A program made the position numbers and the translations under genes. From NCBI RefSeq assembly GCF_003018255.1, contig NZ_CP027440.1: a stretch of 64,000 nucleotides of DNA; one strand, written 5' to 3'. Source of the stretch: Escherichia coli (GTDB lineage: Bacteria; Pseudomonadota; Gammaproteobacteria; Enterobacterales; Enterobacteriaceae). The notes under the pieces were generated by a model, which was not told the origin of the DNA, made no database searches, and was given only the letters and a program-made list of their open reading frames with translations. Below are positions 2,195 through 11,367 of this stretch, piece by piece. Positions within the stretch are counted from its first letter, which is position 1. The number at the start of each line of letters is the position of its first letter.

Positions 2195-3787
2195 GTGTTA
2201 GTTTCCAGTAACGTCACCATGCAGTTCGGCAGTAAGCCGTTGTTTGAAAACATTTCCGTCAAATTTGGCGGCGGCAACCGTTACGGCCTGATTGGCGCGA
2301 ACGGTAGTGGTAAATCCACCTTTATGAAGATCCTCGGCGGCGACTTAGAGCCGACGTTGGGTAACGTTTCCCTCGATCCCAACGAGCGCATTGGTAAGCT
2401 GCGTCAGGATCAGTTTGCCTTTGAAGAGTTCACTGTGCTGGATACGGTGATCATTGGGCATAAAGAGTTGTGGGAAGTGAAGCAGGAGCGTGACCGCATC
2501 TATGCTTTGCCGGAAATGAGTGAAGAAGACGGCTATAAAGTGGCCGATCTGGAAGTGAAATACGGCGAAATGGACGGTTACTCTGCGGAAGCTCGCGCCG
2601 GTGAACTGTTGCTTGGCGTGGGAATTCCAGTGGAACAGCACTACGGCCCGATGAGTGAAGTTGCTCCTGGCTGGAAGCTGCGTGTGCTGCTGGCGCAGGC
2701 GCTGTTTGCTGATCCGGACATTCTCCTGCTCGACGAACCGACCAACAACCTCGACATCGACACCATTCGTTGGCTGGAACAGGTGCTGAACGAGCGTGAC
2801 AGCACCATGATCATCATCTCGCACGACCGTCACTTCCTTAACATGGTTTGTACCCACATGGCGGATCTGGATTACGGCGAGCTGCGCGTTTATCCAGGTA
2901 ACTACGATGAGTACATGACGGCGGCGACCCAGGCGCGTGAGCGTCTGCTGGCTGATAACGCCAAGAAGAAAGCGCAGATTGCTGAGCTGCAATCTTTCGT
3001 TAGCCGCTTTAGTGCCAACGCCTCGAAATCTCGCCAGGCAACTTCGCGCGCGCGCCAGATTGATAAAATCAAACTGGAAGAGGTGAAAGCCTCCAGCCGT
3101 CAGAACCCGTTCATCCGTTTTGAACAGGATAAGAAACTGTTCCGTAACGCGCTGGAAGTGGAAGGTCTGACCAAAGGGTTTGATAACGGTCCGCTGTTTA
3201 AAAATCTCAACCTGCTGCTGGAAGTCGGTGAAAAACTGGCGGTACTGGGTACCAACGGCGTCGGTAAATCAACACTGTTGAAAACGCTGGTGGGCGATCT
3301 GCAACCGGACAGCGGCACCGTAAAATGGTCTGAAAACGCGCGCATTGGTTACTACGCCCAGGACCACGAATATGAGTTCGAAAATGATCTTACCGTGTTC
3401 GAATGGATGAGTCAGTGGAAGCAGGAAGGCGATGACGAGCAGGCGGTACGCAGCATTCTCGGTCGTTTGCTGTTCAGCCAGGACGACATCAAAAAGCCAG
3501 CGAAAGTGCTTTCCGGTGGGGAGAAAGGGCGGATGCTGTTTGGTAAGTTAATGATGCAGAAGCCGAACATTCTGATCATGGACGAACCGACCAACCACCT
3601 GGATATGGAATCCATTGAGTCGCTGAACATGGCGCTGGAACTGTATCAGGGCACGCTGATCTTTGTGTCTCACGACCGTGAGTTTGTAAGCTCCCTGGCG
3701 ACCCGAATTCTGGAAATCACCCCGGAACGCGTGATCGACTTTAGCGGTAATTACGAAGATTATCTGCGTAGTAAAGGGATCGAGTAA
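2195..3787 (+). CDS. ybiT: ABC-F family ATPase (tandem ABC domains, no transmembrane domain)
   Basis: 530-aa ORF with two Walker A motifs (GANGSGKST and GTNGVGKST) and two ABC signature motifs (LSGG). Confidence 0.9.
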
Positions 3788-3795
3788 GTTATTAT

Positions 3796-3824
3796 CCGTC
3801 AGCCCGATACTGTCGGGGTGACGG
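3796..3824. repeat. Nested stem-loop immediately downstream of the ybiT stop
   Basis: CCGTCA-G-CCCGA-tactg-TCGGG-G-TGACGG inverted repeat; no U-tract. Confidence 0.5.
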
Positions 3825-3847
3825 CGGCTGATGACAAACGCAAGATT

Positions 3848-3946
3848 GCCTGATGCGCTATGCTTATCAGGCCTACGCAGTACCTGCAATATATTGAATC
3901 TGCAGGACTTTGTAGGCCGGATAAGGCGTTAACGCCGCATCAGGCA
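3848..3946. repeat. BIME: two oppositely oriented REP elements between convergent ybiT and ybiU
   Basis: GCCTGATGCGCTATGCTTATCAGGCCTAC and GTAGGCCGGATAAGGCGTTAACGCCGCATCAGGCA match the E. coli REP consensus in inverted orientation. Confidence 0.8.
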
Positions 3947-4027
3947 TTAACAAAGCGCATTTGTCAGCAATCTGAGTAACGTTGAATCGATTTTCTTAAT
4001 CCCACATCAATTCACTTCCATTAACTC

Positions 4028-5287
4028 TCAAACATCCATGCCCAGTGCGCGCTTACCGTGAATGTTCAGATCCTCCAGCGTAAAGCGGCCTTCCCAGTTT
4101 GCTTCATAATCTTCCCGCGGGAAGTCGCCAGGTGATGCGCCTTTTTCCAGCGCCATTTTGACTTTGTGTGCATAAGCCCGATTTTTCTCGCACATTGGCG
4201 CAGCAGGGATATACATCACGTTGCCCCAACCCTGTTGATTGTCTACTGGCGCGACGGAGTGAATCACATCGCAGTGCCACCAGACGGAATCCCCTGCTGT
4301 TATCGCGGGAATGGAAGTCAGCGCTTTAAGCAGTAGTGGATGCCATTTCTCTGAAATGGGCAGAACTTTGCCAGGTGCAACCCCGCACAGTTCATCGTCC
4401 GGTACGTCATCCAGCAGCGGGCGCAATAAAACATACGCCATCGCTTCCGGGATAGGCACCACATGTAACAATCCCTGACCCGATAACATATCAGAGAGCG
4501 CCGTCCAGCCCTGAAACGTGCGGAACACCGAACATTTTGTAGTGTTATCTACCGTGTACTCTTCGACATCGGTCCGGTGTGCAGCATCCCAGGGATCGTA
4601 ATCATCGAAATTACCATTAAACACATTGGCAAAAACGCGCTGATAAGCGGGTAATAACCACCGTTCCAGCGCACCAGAATCGGTATGCGCGCCCAGGCCT
4701 TTAGATGTAGTACCTGGAGGGCGGCGGCGGATCCTGTCTGGATAAATCACACTGATATCAGGATTAAACCACTGTTTGCCGTTGCTTTCAGACTTCCACA
4801 GTCGGTTTAGAAAAGATTGCACAGCAGCCATGTTTTCGCTCTGCCGCGCCTGCATCTGTGCTTGCGACCAGTAAATGGGATAGATTTCGGGACGAGAAGC
4901 CTCCAGCGAGCCGAAAAAACTGTCGCCAGGGCCTTTATAAACATCATCAAAATGATTGATATCAAGATAATCGAGCATGGCACGATCCCACGCCATCGCC
5001 TGCTCGCGAGGGAAATGGCCTTTTATGACTGCACAACCGCGACGTTTAATTTCATTGCGAGTGGCATCGCTTACTGTACCTGCGGCAATATCACTATAAG
5101 AAACTTCCGGCCAAACCGGCAGCCCTTGCGCTTTTAGGGCATCGATTTCAGCAACACGCGTTTCGATTTTTGCAGAGAGTGTATCGAAAACCTGTTGCAC
5201 ATCACTGAGCTGTTCCCGCAGCGCAGCTTTCATCTCTCGGATAGCTGCTTTCGCATCTGTGGGCAGCGTCTCACAGGAAAAAGTCAT
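4028..5287 (-). CDS. ybiU: Conserved protein of unknown function (DUF1479 family)
   Basis: 419-aa ORF whose size and position match K-12 YbiU; no recognisable catalytic motif by eye. Confidence 0.8.
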   Translation of the reverse strand: MTFSCETLPTDAKAAIREMKAALREQLSDVQQVFDTLSAKIETRVAEIDALKAQGLPVWPEVSYSDIAAGTVSDATRNEIKRRGCAVIKGHFPREQAMAWDRAMLDYLDINHFDDVYKGPGDSFFGSLEASRPEIYPIYWSQAQMQARQSENMAAVQSFLNRLWKSESNGKQWFNPDISVIYPDRIRRRPPGTTSKGLGAHTDSGALERWLLPAYQRVFANVFNGNFDDYDPWDAAHRTDVEEYTVDNTTKCSVFRTFQGWTALSDMLSGQGLLHVVPIPEAMAYVLLRPLLDDVPDDELCGVAPGKVLPISEKWHPLLLKALTSIPAITAGDSVWWHCDVIHSVAPVDNQQGWGNVMYIPAAPMCEKNRAYAHKVKMALEKGASPGDFPREDYEANWEGRFTLEDLNIHGKRALGMDV

Positions 5288-5392
5288 ATCAACCTCGCTT
5301 CTTTCATTCGAAAGTAAAATGATTGCGATTGATACATTAAGTTAAAAATAAGTTAACGCAAGATAAAAATATTGAGTCAGTGCACAAAGCGA

Positions 5393-5428
5393 GCAAAAAG
5401 GAGAGAGGCCGAAGTGGTCACTTCGGCC
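5393..5428 (-). terminator. Rho-independent terminator downstream of ybiV
   Basis: Stem GGCCGAAGTG / CACTTCGGCC followed on the minus strand by a T-rich tract. Confidence 0.6.
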
Positions 5429-5438
5429 AGGGGGAAGA

Positions 5439-6254
5439 TCAACTATTGAAAGGAGCGATATTATCCAGCACCGCCTGAATCACATTCAGCGCGCCTTCAT
5501 GATTATTATCATCGGTAGCGTAACGGGCGATTTGTTTAATGTTTTCCGCAGCATTGCCCATCGCAAAGGAATAACGCGCCATTTTCAGCATCTCCGCATC
5601 GTTACCGCTGTCGCCAATCGCTACCACATTTTGCGGTGACAGATCCCAGCGTTTCAGTAACCGCGAAATACCGTTTGCTTTATGTAGACCGGGAATAATC
5701 AAGTCGATAAAGCCAAAACCACTGGTGACGGGTTTCATAATGCCATCCAGCGCTATGTGCAGTTTGTCGATCACTAACGGGATTTGTTCATCCGGCAGGT
5801 TGAGCGAAAACTTGAACAGTACGTCGTCAATCTCCTGATAATCTTTTACAGGTTTCAGGCGATGGTAGTGTTTTGCCATCAGTGCGACGAATGCTTCGGG
5901 GGCATTTTCGCTGACATATGCACTTTGCAGACCGCAGGCGACAAAATTGAGTTGCTTATCTTTTAGCAACTCGCCAATAACAATCCGCGATTCATGTCGG
6001 GTCAGTTCGCCGTGGAACAACTGCTTGCCATGTTCGTAAACCAGTGCGCCGTTTTCCGCGACAAAAGAGATCTCATCCTTTAGCTCAGGAAAGAACGAAA
6101 TAAGCTGGTAATACTGATTACCGCTGGCGACAACGAACTCAATGCCGCGCTTTTTCAGTTCCTGATATTGCGCCATAAAACGTGGTTGGTTGTACGTTTT
6201 GGCGTCGTTAAGAAAAGTACCGTCCATGTCTGTGACGATAACTTTTACGCTCAT
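5439..6254 (-). CDS. ybiV: HAD-superfamily (Cof-type) sugar phosphatase
   Basis: 271-aa ORF; N-terminal DMDGTF motif (HAD motif I) and GDSGND (motif IV); paralog of ybjI in this window. Confidence 0.9.
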
Positions 6255-6399
6255 AGGTGTGCTCCTGGCTCGAAAATGAAACCGTAACAGTGTAATAACA
6301 ATGTGACGCAGAGCACAAATTATATTTCGAATGAAAGCGAGGCTGAAATTGATGATGTGAATGATTTGGCCCGGCGACGACGACGCCGGGCTGAGGGGA

Positions 6400-8832
6400 T
6401 TACAGCATGTGTTCGGTACGGGCGATGATATCGTCCTGTGCGTCTGGAGAGAGCGCGGTGAAGAAGGCGGAATAACCCGCTACGCGTACCACCAGATCGC
6501 GGTATTGATCCGGATGTTTCTTCGCCTCCAGCAATGTTTCGCGGGAAACAATGTTGTACTGAATATGCCAGCCTTTATGCACTTCAAAGAAGGTACGCAG
6601 CAGGATCATCAGTTTCTGCTTGTCAGATTCATTCTCCAGCGTTGCCGGATTCAGTTTCTGGTTGAGCAGCACGCCGCCGAGAATTGCTGCCGTAGGCAGT
6701 TTACCCACCGAGCCAATGACCGCAGTAGGGCCGAGATGGTCAGTACCGGAGGCCGGACTAGCGCCTTCTGCCAGCGGGGTATGTGCTTTACGTCCGTCCG
6801 GCGTTGCCATCGTCTGCGCGCCAAACGGTACGTTAGCGGAGATAGACGATGTGCCCGCATAATAGTTGCCGCCAATCGGACCACGACCGTAGCGCGGGTT
6901 ATGGTACTGCTTCAGTTCGTCGATATAGGTCTGATAAGCGCGAGCCAGCAGCGTATCGACAGTATCATCGTCGTTGCCGTACTTCGGCGCACCGTTAATC
7001 AGCCGCTGACGCAGCTGCTCGTGAGTCAGGCCGTCGAAGTCATCCGCCAGTGCGGCAGCCAGCTGTTGCTGACCAATCGCGCCCTGTTCAAATACCAGTT
7101 TCTTCACTGCCGCCAGGCTGTTGCCGAGGTTAGCAATGCCGACCTGCAGGCCAGAAACCCAGTCATATTTCGCGCCGCCTTGCTTGATACTTTTCGCTCG
7201 CTCAATACAGTCATCGACCAGCGCCGAGCAGAGAATATCGTGTACGTTCTCTTCCAGCATGGTATCGACGACATATTCGATTTCGATTGATTTACGCGTG
7301 TAGTAACGGATTTGCGTATCCCATGCGTCCATTACTTCATCGAAGTTGTTGAAGTTACCCGCTGACAACGCTTTTGCTTGTGGCAGGAACACTTTGCCGC
7401 TGGTGGCATCACGACCACCTTCCAGCGCCGCCAGCATCACGCGGGCGAAGTTGATAAAGCTCATGCCGGTACAGCGATAGCCCCATTTGCCACCGACGGC
7501 GGTTTCGATACAACCAATTGCTGCGTAGTCGTAAGCGTCCTGCGGTTCAATACCGAGTTTAATAAATTCCGGGATCACGATTTCGTCGTTGTTGAACGCC
7601 GGCATCCCGAAGCCGCAGCGGATCACCTGAACACAGGCGTCGAGGAAATCGTTACTCATACCCGCATGGTAACGCACGCTGAGGTTAGGCTGAGTCGAAC
7701 GCAGGCGACCGCAAGATTCGAGGATCGCATAAGAGAGTGGATTTACCGCGTCCATCGGTTGACCATCAACCAGATTTTGCCCGCCAATGGTGACGTTCTG
7801 ATACAGCGGACTTCCCGCAGAGGCTTTTGAGTGTGAGCCGGAGCGGATTTTGTTCACTTCCAGCAGTTTCAGCCAGCAGCTATGCAGCATCTCGATGGCG
7901 TGTTCGCGATCCAGTGTCTGGTTCAGTTCAACGTCACGGCGATAGTATGGGTAGAGATACTGGTCCATACGACCAAACGATACCGAGTGACCGTTAGATT
8001 CGATCTGCAAAATCAACTGGATGAAGTAGCACAGTTGCAGCGCCTGCCAGAAAGTCTGCGGCGGCTGGTGGGCGATAAGATCGCAGTTTTCTGCTATCGT
8101 CAGCAGTTCATCGCGACGGCTTTCGCGGGTTTCGGTTGCGGCCATTTCACGCGCCAGGGCAGCGAAACGTTCAATGTGTTCACTGACTGCCACCAGCACG
8201 ATATCAATCGCTTTCAGGAATTGCTCGCCGTGCAGATCTTCCAGAACCGTCAGATTGATGCGCGAGCGACGTTCCGCCACTTTCTCACGCAGACCATCAA
8301 GACCTTTTTCCAGCAGTAGCGGGAAATTGACCGCCAGGTGCGCATCGCCGGAGGTCATATTGCCCTCCGCTTTAATGATGCCGGTCGCCAGCAGACCTTT
8401 TTGCTCATCGGTAAACATGCCGTAGCAGCGATCCTGTACGGTCTGACCGCGCCACCACGGGCACACTTCATGCAGAACGCGTTTGTTCTCTTCGCTCACC
8501 GCAAAACCAGCACCGGGACGATCTGCCAGATCATCAATCTCTTTTTCGATCCAGGAGACGGTATATTCCGGGAAGATCGGCGCGGCGCGAACTTCGCTTG
8601 CCTGGTTGCCAATGATCAATTCATCATGTTTGATCCAGATGGTGCGATTCGCCAGGTGATGCGCCAGTGCCAGCGCGCGACGTACCGGGATTGGCTTATC
8701 GAGATGTTGTTGATACATCTCGGTATAGTGTTGTGCTCGTTCGGTACAGACCGGCGGTTTCACAATATGCACCAGCGCATTTTTGTGCGCTTTAATGCGG
8801 TCGCTGAGCGTATCCAGTTTTAGTGTTGTCAT
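6400..8832 (-). CDS. ybiW: Glycyl-radical enzyme, pyruvate formate-lyase-like
   Basis: 810-aa ORF with the C-terminal glycyl-radical motif RVAGYSA; an activase gene lies immediately downstream. Confidence 0.9.
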
Positions 8833-8837
8833 GATTG

Positions 8838-9737
8838 TTATCCTCGTAAGGTCGCGGTTAACCCTTTCTGGCAGGCATACTGCTGGGCAAAGTCGAGCAG
8901 TTCTGGCGCATCAAGCGGTTTTTCCGGGGCGTCATAGGGCAGATTAAGTAAGTGATATTTGTTGATGCCCAGCGTGTGGTAGGGCAGGAAATGAATTTCA
9001 CCAACGTGCAGCTCGTCGGCGGCAAAATCGGTAATGGCTTTCACAGAGGTTTCGTCGGCATTAAAGCCCTGAATCAGCGGCACGCGGATAATGATTTTTT
9101 TGCCCGCTGCGGCGAGTTTTTTCAGGTTATCCAGCACTCTGGCGGCGTTACCGTCGGTCCACTGTTTAAATGGCGCGTCGGCAACGTGTTTTAAATCGGC
9201 AAGAAACAGATCGATATAGGGCAGAGAAGGGGCGATATATTTCCACGGCACATGCAGACAGGTTTCTACCGCAGTATGAATGCCGGCCTCGTGGCTGGCT
9301 TGCAGCAGCGCCGTCGCCATTTCCGGCTGCATAAACGGTTCACCGCCAGAAAGCGTTAAGCCGCCGCCGCTGCGCTCGTAAAACGGTTTATCGCGCAAAA
9401 CGGTTGCCATGATCTCCTCAACGCTTTTCACTTCACCACATACGGTTAACGCCTGTGTCGGGCAGCAGTCGGTTAACGCCGTAAAATGCTCCGGGGTTAA
9501 CTTTTCCCGATGGATAAGCAAACCATTCAGCGCGCGCTCAATCACTTCCGGCGCGGCCTTAGCGCACAGCTCGCAGCCTTCCAGACACAGTCGTGCGTCA
9601 TACAGCAGATCCTGCGTGCGGGCGCGGCTTTCCGGGTTCTGACACCAGCGGCAGCCCAGCGAACAGCCTTTAAGAAATACGACCGTGCGGATACCGGGGC
9701 CATCATGGGTCGAGTAGCGCTGAATATTGAAAATCAT
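8838..9737 (-). CDS. ybiY: Glycyl-radical enzyme activating enzyme (radical SAM)
   Basis: CxxxCxxC radical-SAM motif ([11 protein letters not shown]) plus additional Cys clusters; the ORF track start is at 9764, the more likely ATG at 9737. Confidence 0.85.
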
Positions 9738-9867
9738 AGTTGCCTCTCTGTTTCGTTCAAACATTAAAATACTTTCGAATGAAAGTTAGATTGATGTGCG
9801 TCAACTGTTCAGAGAGTTTTCCCGTGATAGTCTACATTCAGACAAAAAGTACATTTTGAGGATGGTT

Positions 9868-10530
9868 ATGGAACTGTATCTGGATACTTCAGACGTTGTT
9901 GCGGTGAAGGCGCTGTCACGTATTTTTCCGCTGGCGGGTGTAACCACTAACCCAAGCATTATCGCCGCGGGTAAAAAACCGCTGGAGGTTGTGCTTCCGC
10001 AACTTCACGAGGCGATGGGCGGTCAGGGGCGTCTGTTTGCCCAGGTAATGGCTACCACTGCTGAAGGGATGGTGAATGACGCACGTAAATTGCGTTCTAT
10101 TATTGCGGATATCGTGGTGAAAGTTCCGGTGACCGCTGAGGGGCTGGCAGCAATTAAGATGTTAAAAGCGGAAGGGATTCCGACGCTGGGAACCGCGGTA
10201 TATGGCGCAGCACAAGGGCTACTGTCGGCGCTGGCAGGTGCGGAATATGTTGCGCCTTACGTTAATCGTATTGATGCTCAGGGCGGTAGCGGCATTCAGA
10301 CTGTGACCGACTTACACCAGTTATTGAAAATGCATGCGCCGCAGGCAAAAGTGTTAGCCGCAAGTTTCAAAACCCCGCGTCAGGCGCTGGACTGCTTACT
10401 GGCAGGATGTGAATCAATTACTCTGCCACTGGATGTGGCACAACAGATGATTAGCTATCCGGCGGTTGATGCCGCTGTGGCGAAGTTTGAGCAGGACTGG
10501 CAGGGAGCGTTTGGCAGAACGTCGATTTAA
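9868..10530 (+). CDS. fsaA: Fructose-6-phosphate aldolase 1 (transaldolase-like)
   Basis: In-frame ATG giving [17 protein letters not shown] (220 aa); the ORF track start at 9796 is an upstream in-frame extension. Confidence 0.9.
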
Positions 10531-10561
10531 CCGGACGTTCTGCATCCTCATAAATTGCTGA

Positions 10562-10606
10562 TGACGTGGCGGAGTGCACCGATGCCTGCCACGTCTTATC
10601 AGGCCT
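10562..10606. repeat. REP-like hairpin between convergent fsaA and moeB
   Basis: Inverted repeat GACGTGGC...GCCACGTC followed by CTTATCAGGCC, resembling REP. Confidence 0.5.
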
Positions 10607-10617
10607 GGAGGTGGCAA

Positions 10618-11367
10618 TTACTGCCCGCACACCTCACACCCCGGATTGCGCATCAGTTTCATTTCGCGAAACTGACAGGTCATCGCATCGTACATCACGA
10701 TTTTCCCGCTGGCTGGTTTGCCATAACCTGCCAGCAGTTTGATCGCTTCCATTGCCTGCAACGAACCAATTACGCCGATCAACGGTGCCATCACGCCTGC
10801 TTCTACGCAGGTTAACGCGTTCTCGCCAAACAAACGGCTAAGGCAGCGATAGCACGGTTCGCCGTCCTGATAAGTGAAGACCGTGATTTGCCCTTCCATA
10901 CGAATTGCCGCGCCGGAAACCAGCGGCACCTTCGCGGCAAAACAGCCTGCGTTCAGTTGATTACGTACTGCAACGTTATCCGTACAGTCGAGCACCAGAT
11001 CGTGTTTTGCAATCATCGCAGCAAGTTCAGCGTCATCAAGCAGCGCATTGACTGGCGTAATCGCGATATGTGGGTTGATCCGCGTCAGGGCGTCACGGGC
11101 GGATTCCACCTTTGGTTGCCCGACCGTGGCATCACTGTGCAGCGTCTGGCGTTGCAGATTGGAGAGCGAAACCGTGTCGAAGTCGAGCAGCGTCAGGTTG
11201 CCGACACCGGCGCTTGCCAGATACTGCGAAGCTGCGCAGCCGAGTCCACCAAGGCCGACGACCAGCACGCGGGAATCTTTCAATGCTTCCTGACCGTCAA
11301 AATCAAAACCGCGCAGAATGATTTGCCGGTTGTAGCGCAGCATCTCCTGATCGCTGAGTTCTGCCAT
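10618..11367 (-). CDS. moeB: Molybdopterin-synthase adenylyltransferase
   Basis: 249-aa ORF; ThiF/MoeB Rossmann motif GLGGLGC; C-terminal CxxC pairs; start overlaps the moeA stop. Confidence 0.9.
   Translation of the reverse strand: MAELSDQEMLRYNRQIILRGFDFDGQEALKDSRVLVVGLGGLGCAASQYLASAGVGNLTLLDFDTVSLSNLQRQTLHSDATVGQPKVESARDALTRINPHIAITPVNALLDDAELAAMIAKHDLVLDCTDNVAVRNQLNAGCFAAKVPLVSGAAIRMEGQITVFTYQDGEPCYRCLSRLFGENALTCVEAGVMAPLIGVIGSLQAMEAIKLLAGYGKPASGKIVMYDAMTCQFREMKLMRNPGCEVCGQ

Follow-up and report, generated by a model that had tools for sequence, protein, structure and literature searches.

Genes and palindromes of the ybi locus

The window, meaning the whole stretch of 64,000 nucleotides of Escherichia coli contig NZ_CP027440.1 that was analysed, contains the gene cluster ybiU-ybiV-ybiW-ybiY-fsaA, in which three near-identical palindromes were located in the promoter regions. 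The minus strand carries ybiU (4028-5287), encoding a DUF1479 protein, ybiV (5439-6254), encoding a sugar phosphatase, and the ybiY-ybiW operon (6400-9737), in which ybiW (6400-8832) codes for a glycyl-radical enzyme and ybiY (8838-9737) for a glycyl-radical activase. A terminator-like hairpin (5407-5428) separates ybiV from ybiU. On the plus strand, fsaA (9868-10530) is transcribed divergently from ybiY, its ATG at 9868 being a small correction to the initial annotation. Window coordinates correspond to MG1655 NC_000913.3 coordinates minus 853,774. YbiW has been described to convert 1,5-anhydroglucitol-6-phosphate to 1-deoxyfructose-6-phosphate in a strictly anaerobic reaction (Ma et al. 2024, as cited in PMC12441222), and ybiYW-fsaA have recently been shown to let gut bacteria break down 1,5-anhydroglucitol, a polyol common in diet and host, without oxygen.

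The 13-mer TTTCGAATGAAAG was present in three copies in the window, with 0.00 expected from 100 dinucleotide shuffles, and these copies (5301-5313, on the opposite strand; 6325-6337; 9773-9785) are distributed such that each of the ybiU, ybiV and ybiY/fsaA promoter regions holds one. The near-identical inverted repeats that the initial annotation had pointed out in three intergenic regions are thus real. The full 16-mer palindrome given in its heading, ACTTTCGAATGAAAGT, was found at the third site only, spanning 9771-9786, and it is the 13-mer that is common to all three. Site 1 (5301-5314), in the promoter or leader of ybiU, reads CTTTCATTCGAAAG, or CTTTCGAATGAAAG on the gene strand, is an exact match to CTTTC-N4-GAAAG and ends 13 nt before the ybiU ATG (5287, minus strand); its final base is G in the window and C in MG1655. 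Site 2 (6324-6337), between the ybiW stop codon and the ybiV start, reads ATTTCGAATGAAAG, or CTTTCATTCGAAAT on the gene strand, has one mismatch to this pattern and is 69 nt ahead of the ybiV ATG. Site 3 (9772-9785; CTTTCGAATGAAAG), in the divergent ybiY/fsaA region, is again exact and is 34 nt ahead of the ybiY ATG. The spacing between the three sites is 1,023 and 3,448 bp. Allowing one mismatch, CTTTC-N4-GAAAG gave six matches in the 64 kb, with 2.1 expected; the three matches outside the cluster correspond to chance level.

For phylogenetic footprinting, YbiW was used as query to collect one locus from each of 80 species, ranging from Escherichia to Yersinia and amounting to 1.07 Mb in total. 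The palindrome was retained at a fixed position at each promoter: upstream of ybiY it was exact in 72 of the 80 species, 34-39 nt before the ATG; upstream of ybiU it had at most one mismatch in 54/55 species (43 exact), 13-31 nt before the ATG; and upstream of ybiV at most one mismatch in 52/59 species, 65-70 nt before the ATG, the final base always being T. In each intergenic alignment, the palindrome was the best-conserved block. All 115 exact copies in the 1.07 Mb were located at the ybiY and ybiU promoter positions, with none elsewhere in the fetched loci (0.7-1 expected). One-mismatch matches elsewhere numbered 28, with about 30 expected. The motif is therefore concentrated at the cluster promoters and shows no excess over chance in the remainder of these loci. 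At a given site, the central four bases could occur in either orientation, as ATTC or as GAAT, and intermediates such as ATAT, AAAT and GTAT were found. Such an orientation-free centre fits a two-fold symmetric protein that reads two equivalent half-sites, CTTTC(A/G)(T/A).

The initial annotation had further described an ATTGAT-like sequence near each palindrome. In the window, this element is present 13, 10 and 4 nt from sites 1, 2 and 3, respectively. Across species, it was conserved at ybiY only, where ATCAA was found in 47 of 77 species and mostly GTCAA in the remainder; at ybiV and ybiU promoters it was found in 3/58 and 4/55 species. ATTGAT as a second motif common to all sites was consequently rejected, and the conserved element at ybiY constitutes half of an FNR-type box.

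YciT as the candidate regulator

We propose, with a probability of about 0.9, that the three palindromes are operators of YciT (DeoT, b1284), a DeoR-family repressor, which would be the shared factor left unnamed in the initial annotation. RNA sequencing of a yciT deletion revealed log2 changes of +7.7 for ybiY, +7.0 for ybiU, +3.5 for ybiW, +2.2 for ybiV and +1.8 for fsaA (Gao et al. 2021, PMC8464067), with ybiY, ybiU and ybiW being the most up-regulated genes in this deletion. In the same study, YciT was validated as a DeoR-type DNA binder via chromatin immunoprecipitation with exonuclease treatment (ChIP-exo), which yielded a palindromic motif (MEME E = 1.8e-37) and two peaks within the cluster, assigned to ybiY with a signal-to-noise ratio (S/N) of 45 and to ybiV with an S/N of 24. 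Independently, ybiY promoter DNA was found to enrich YciT in DNA-affinity mass spectrometry; YciT was read as a repressor overlapping RNA polymerase at this promoter (ybiYp), and promoter activity as determined by Reg-Seq was anaerobic only (preprint 10.1101/2025.05.13.653802). Derepression upon yciT deletion, the ChIP-exo peaks in the cluster, the affinity capture and motif identity all support a shared transcription-factor operator that co-regulates the cluster, and none of the refuting conditions set out in the initial annotation held: the sites are retained in orthologous regions, the motif shows no excess away from the cluster, and protein binding is on record.

ChIP-exo coordinates refer to NC_000913.2; they were converted, and the MG1655 sequence was inspected at the other peaks. 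YTTTC-N4/5-GAAAR was found within ten YciT peaks outside the cluster, and seven of the eight newly fetched peaks were centred at most 0.5 bp from the motif. The strongest peak of the genome, at yfcV (S/N 69), contains ATACTTTCcGAATGAAAGTTA, which is site 3 plus one inserted base, at an offset of -0.5 bp. The rdcA/phnA peak (S/N 30) contains TTTTCATTTGAAAG, likewise at -0.5 bp, and this motif is the YciT site of the 2020 Reg-Seq study (Ireland et al. 2020, PMC7567609). The motif was also present in the yhgE, oppA, yjjI/deoC and sixA peaks, at an offset of at most 0.5 bp each, in the yjiT peak, 10 bp from its centre, and in the pdeR, ybiO and ompX peaks. Because the consensus under the other peaks is YTTTC-N4(5)-GAAAR, we take the palindrome to be the YciT recognition sequence. 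A YciT dimer or higher oligomer would recognise YTTTC-N4-GAAAR, with the inner four bases preferably being ATTC or GAAT in either orientation.

The yfcV-sixA site (MG1655 2,456,190-2,456,204) has a 5-base spacer, CTTTC-CGAAT-GAAAG, and the ompX peak also contains an N5 element; with the longer spacer occurring at the strongest peak, YciT tolerates one extra central base. A further YciT site, CATTCATTTGAAAG (MG1655 4,617,156-4,617,169), lies between yjjI and deoC, on the upstream side of yjjI and near the deo promoter region. The yjjI product is another glycyl-radical-type enzyme, and the older name DeoT may have to do with this site. A perfect CTTTCgggtGAAAG is also present under the weak peak at ybiO, where it is the central part of a GC-rich stem of 10 bp, CCTCCCTTTC/GAAAGGGAGG (MG1655 845,560-845,591, upstream of ybiO). 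This stem resembles the glnQ terminator, and the YciT 'site' there may be incidental.

Several points speak against the assignment of the palindromes to YciT. The two in-cluster peaks (858455-858488 and 862873-862900 in NC_000913.2) convert to window positions 5458-5491 and 9876-9903, which puts them 154 bp (site 1) and 104 bp (site 3) off the palindromes; direct overlap of the published in-cluster peaks with the palindromes thus failed, and no motif was found under these two peak calls. Site 2 has no listed ChIP-exo peak (PMC8464067). The Reg-Seq preprint puts its own YciT site at ybiYp about 100 bases from the ChIP-exo call and cites RegulonDB as listing YciT among the activators of ybiY (10.1101/2025.05.13.653802). 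The sites at ybiU and ybiV are putative operators.

As to the displaced peaks, the position about 100 bases away that was reported in the preprint is where site 3 lies, and the conversion from NC_000913.2 is considered valid because the other peaks fall on the motif. We regard the two in-cluster table entries as imprecise peak calls, which we cannot prove. Placing the operator at site 3 reconciles two published datasets that locate the YciT site about 100 bp apart. The peak offsets are near three times and two times the 51-nt read length, which may be coincidence.

The offsets of 104-154 bp would also be compatible with a different protein binding the palindromes, the YciT effect being indirect or coming from the neighbouring positions at which the peaks were called, and the motif description of YfeC is superficially alike. 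We consider this improbable, since the ten other YciT peaks contain this motif, mostly no more than 0.5 bp away from their centres, the displaced in-cluster peaks cover no motif-like sequence, and in 11 species yciT adjoins the operon that bears the palindrome. The YfeC peak list is empty between 820 kb and 960 kb, and YfeC was rejected as the binder of the palindromes for having no peaks in the region.

The relationship between YciT and these targets has already been published, and repression was proposed earlier (Gao et al., Supplementary Fig. 17; preprint text); this basic conclusion, that YciT represses the cluster, stays unchanged. The published YciT regulon (PMC8464067; Ireland et al. 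2020, PMC7567609; preprint) agrees with the present analysis in the regulator, in the targets ybiU, ybiV, ybiYW and fsaA and in the palindromic motif class. It differs in that the in-cluster peak coordinates lie off the palindromes and the ybiV-promoter site is absent from the list. YciT is tied to osmotic stress or 'aerobic repression' in these papers, and FNR and an ancestral operon go unmentioned. The additions made here are a base-pair placement of the three operators, with the ybiV site that the published list lacks, a likely FNR site at ybiYp and an ancestral ybiY-ybiW-yciT operon.

YciT comprises an HTH_DeoR domain (PF08220; E 1.4e-15, residues 4-59) and a DeoRC sugar-phosphate sensor domain (PF00455; E 7.7e-47, residues 69-227). 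The same architecture is found in DeoR, which represses deoCABD through three 16-bp palindromic operators, TGTTAGAATTCTAACA, with DNA looping, and for which deoxyribose-5-phosphate is the inducer. Both systems have several short inverted-repeat operators distributed over kilobases within one cluster. In contrast to DeoR, YciT has a different half-site, its operators serve separate promoters 1.0 and 3.4 kb apart, and its gene is unlinked to the cluster in E. coli. GlpR, AgaR, UlaR, SrlR and CsqR/YihW, further DeoR-family members of Enterobacteria, are likewise local catabolic repressors that sense a phosphorylated intermediate, with operators overlapping the pathway promoters and global regulators layered on top; unlike in these systems, the layered regulator at the key YciT promoter appears to be FNR, fitting an oxygen-sensitive glycyl-radical enzyme. 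By analogy with the DeoR family, the inducer of YciT is probably a phosphorylated pathway intermediate, e.g., 1,5-anhydroglucitol-6-phosphate or 1-deoxyfructose-6-phosphate.

Promoter architecture around the proposed operators

At the ybiY promoter, an FNR-type box is located at 9791-9804 (plus strand TTGATgtgcGTCAA, gene strand TTGACgcacATCAA), matching 9 of 10 positions of TTGAT-N4-ATCAA and including the ATTGATGTG of the initial annotation. A box with at most two mismatches was present in 74 of 79 species, 16 of these being perfect and belonging to several genera, compared with 1% of random 30-mers, and the gap between box and palindrome was exactly 5 bp in 73 of the 74 species. Judged by its sequence, the box is a candidate FNR site. 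The probable -10 hexamer of ybiY, TTTAAT (9763-9768, minus strand), lies in the conserved TAATTTAAT/TATTTTAAT that directly follows the palindrome, and its spacing from the FNR box fits an FNR position of -41.5. With FNR centred there, the predicted transcription start site would be at about 9756 and the operator would extend from -29 to -16, filling the 14 bp between FNR box and -10 hexamer. From this position, YciT would be expected to keep RNA polymerase off the promoter and probably to crowd FNR as well, and the ybiYW promoter would accordingly need both anaerobiosis and loss of YciT binding. The pairing of YciT operator and FNR box, placed at the base-pair level, provides a testable on-logic, namely oxygen absent and inducer present.

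In the preprint, YciT was placed at '-5' and an unassigned activator at '-20', i.e., 15 bp apart, counted from a computationally predicted start (10.1101/2025.05.13.653802). The distance between the centres of palindrome and FNR box is 19 bp. The closeness of this value to the 15 bp suggests FNR as the unassigned activator of ybiYp and thus offers an identity for it; in the aerobic lysates of that study, FNR would be inactive. Among the papers available for searching, none paired ybiY with FNR, and the Reg-Seq preprint makes no mention of FNR. On the fsaA side, a conserved TGnTAnnnT (TGaTAGTCT, 9825-9833), which we read as an extended -10 element, may have the FNR box about 42 bp upstream of it; speculatively, one FNR dimer may serve the divergent ybiYW and fsaA promoters. 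About 22 bp downstream of the ybiY operator, a degenerate second element (9741-9762) reads tCTTCATACGAAAG in many genera and is reduced to tgtttgaaCGAAAc in the window; an additional half-site for YciT, close to +1, is one possible reading.

At the ybiV promoter, site 2 shares its final base with a TATAAT hexamer (6319-6324), whose first T it provides; across species, the palindrome is followed by a TAnAAT-like hexamer. The operator would thus lie within the promoter spacer, overlapping the first base of TATAAT. On the gene-proximal side, 5-6 bp from the operator, a CRP-type box (6302-6317; TGTGAcgcagaGCACA) was found, which is retained with at most two mismatches and at the same distance from the palindrome in 58/59 species, pointing to a possible CRP input at ybiV. 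The position of this box would be either about +1 of the TATAAT promoter or, given a second promoter whose leader is very short, -41.5 of that one. At ybiU, the operator would be located at or just past the transcription start, directly preceding the ribosome-binding site. Upstream of it, AAGTTAA direct repeats with 11-bp spacing (5339-5366) form a strongly conserved block, and AACTT-N6-AACTT was present upstream of ybiU in 40/55 species. We take these repeats to resemble ArcA boxes; if this is what they are, ybiU would receive a redox input opposite to that of ybiYW. A consensus sigma-70 scan of the three intergenic regions revealed no strong promoter, which is consistent with activator-dependent promoters and as such uninformative.

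RegulonDB lists YciT as an activator, as cited in the preprint (10.1101/2025.05.13.653802), the RefSeq product name is 'dual regulator', and with the ybiV operator lying upstream of the CRP-like box, a non-repressive geometry is conceivable there. However, all five genes go up and not down upon yciT deletion, and the operators overlap -10, spacer or start regions, making it slightly less probable still than binding by another protein that YciT activates these promoters or has a dual role at some of them.

Site 1, situated directly upstream of the ybiU Shine-Dalgarno sequence, is probably transcribed, and the palindromes could in principle form hairpins in 5'-leader RNA that control translation or stability instead of being DNA operators. 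This RNA-element reading was rejected, leaving it a very slight chance: the 5-bp stems were no more stable than shuffled sequences (z of -0.5, +1.1 and -0.6), and no Rfam family matched the palindromes, a search of the cluster at permissive threshold returning nothing except one weak naRNA4 match. The arms are invariant and free of covariation, the substitutions observed (first C to G/A, last G to T/C) disrupt base pairing, and sites 2 and 3, being upstream of likely -10 elements, would go untranscribed. That the palindromes are chance matches or functionless remnants of local duplication, for which only the shortness of the element speaks, is practically refuted by the three copies against zero expected and by the conservation of their positions between Escherichia and Rouxiella amid diverging flanks.

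Linkage of yciT with ybiYW and a possible origin of the cluster

In E. coli K-12, yciT lies outside the window, 0.48 Mb away from the cluster. A tblastn search with E. coli YciT revealed orthologs of 58-78% identity adjoining ybiYW in 11 species. The gene order of Franconibacter, Buttiauxella and Serratia, rnb/pdeR-yciZ-fsaA|ybiY-ybiW-yciT-osmB-yciH-pyrF-lapB-lapA, corresponds to the yciT neighbourhood of E. coli. Five of the 11 loci are at the yciT chromosomal position (about 4300-9250 of each fetched locus), with yciT starting 43-50 nt after ybiW. The ybi locus is where the cluster was found in 58 species, among them Escherichia, Citrobacter, Klebsiella and Enterobacter; it is accompanied there by ybiV and ybiU and has no neighbouring yciT. 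The occurrence of fsaA|ybiY-ybiW-yciT at the yciT position of E. coli makes the E. coli gene look like a local repressor stranded at its ancestral site, which would account for a regulator encoded at 1.34 Mb controlling genes at 0.86 Mb. As to an autoregulatory site, no match with up to one mismatch was found upstream of E. coli yciT; the sole nearby site is upstream of pdeR, 2.5 kb off.

From these data, a tentative scenario can be drawn, to which we give less than even odds. YciT would sense 1,5-anhydroglucitol-6-phosphate (or 1-deoxyfructose-6-phosphate) in the pathway of radical-mediated glycolysis and would have been orphaned in the Escherichia, Citrobacter, Klebsiella and Enterobacter lineages when fsaA-ybiYW moved out of an ancestral fsaA|ybiY-ybiW-yciT operon to the ybi locus, where it gained ybiV and ybiU. 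One type of operator would then gate three promoters with different global inputs, i.e., one FNR dimer for ybiYW and fsaA, CRP at ybiV and ArcA-like repeats at ybiU. If true, one class of substrates would be handled by two separate branches, an anaerobic one (YbiW) and one that may depend on oxygen (YbiU).

In Yersinia (two loci, 3310-10134), ybiYW was found with neither the palindrome nor the FNR box. There, ybiYW is flanked by an SgrR-like gene and a SetA-like transporter gene, as in Horler and Vanderpool 2009 (PMC2760817). This suggests that Yersinia ybiYW is under the sugar-phosphate stress system instead of YciT.

Within E. coli, region 3800-10800 of the window is about 92% identical to K-12 MG1655 and 98.7% identical to some E. 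coli genomes. Compared with this region, E. coli genomes fall into two identity classes, 1,319 at 95-99% and 4,106 at 90-95%, indicating that the cluster exists as two divergent haplotypes. The weak Rfam match to naRNA4, which is derived from repetitive extragenic palindromic (REP) sequences, is located just 3' of ybiU at 3915-3951 and has a score of 31.6 bits, under the gathering score.

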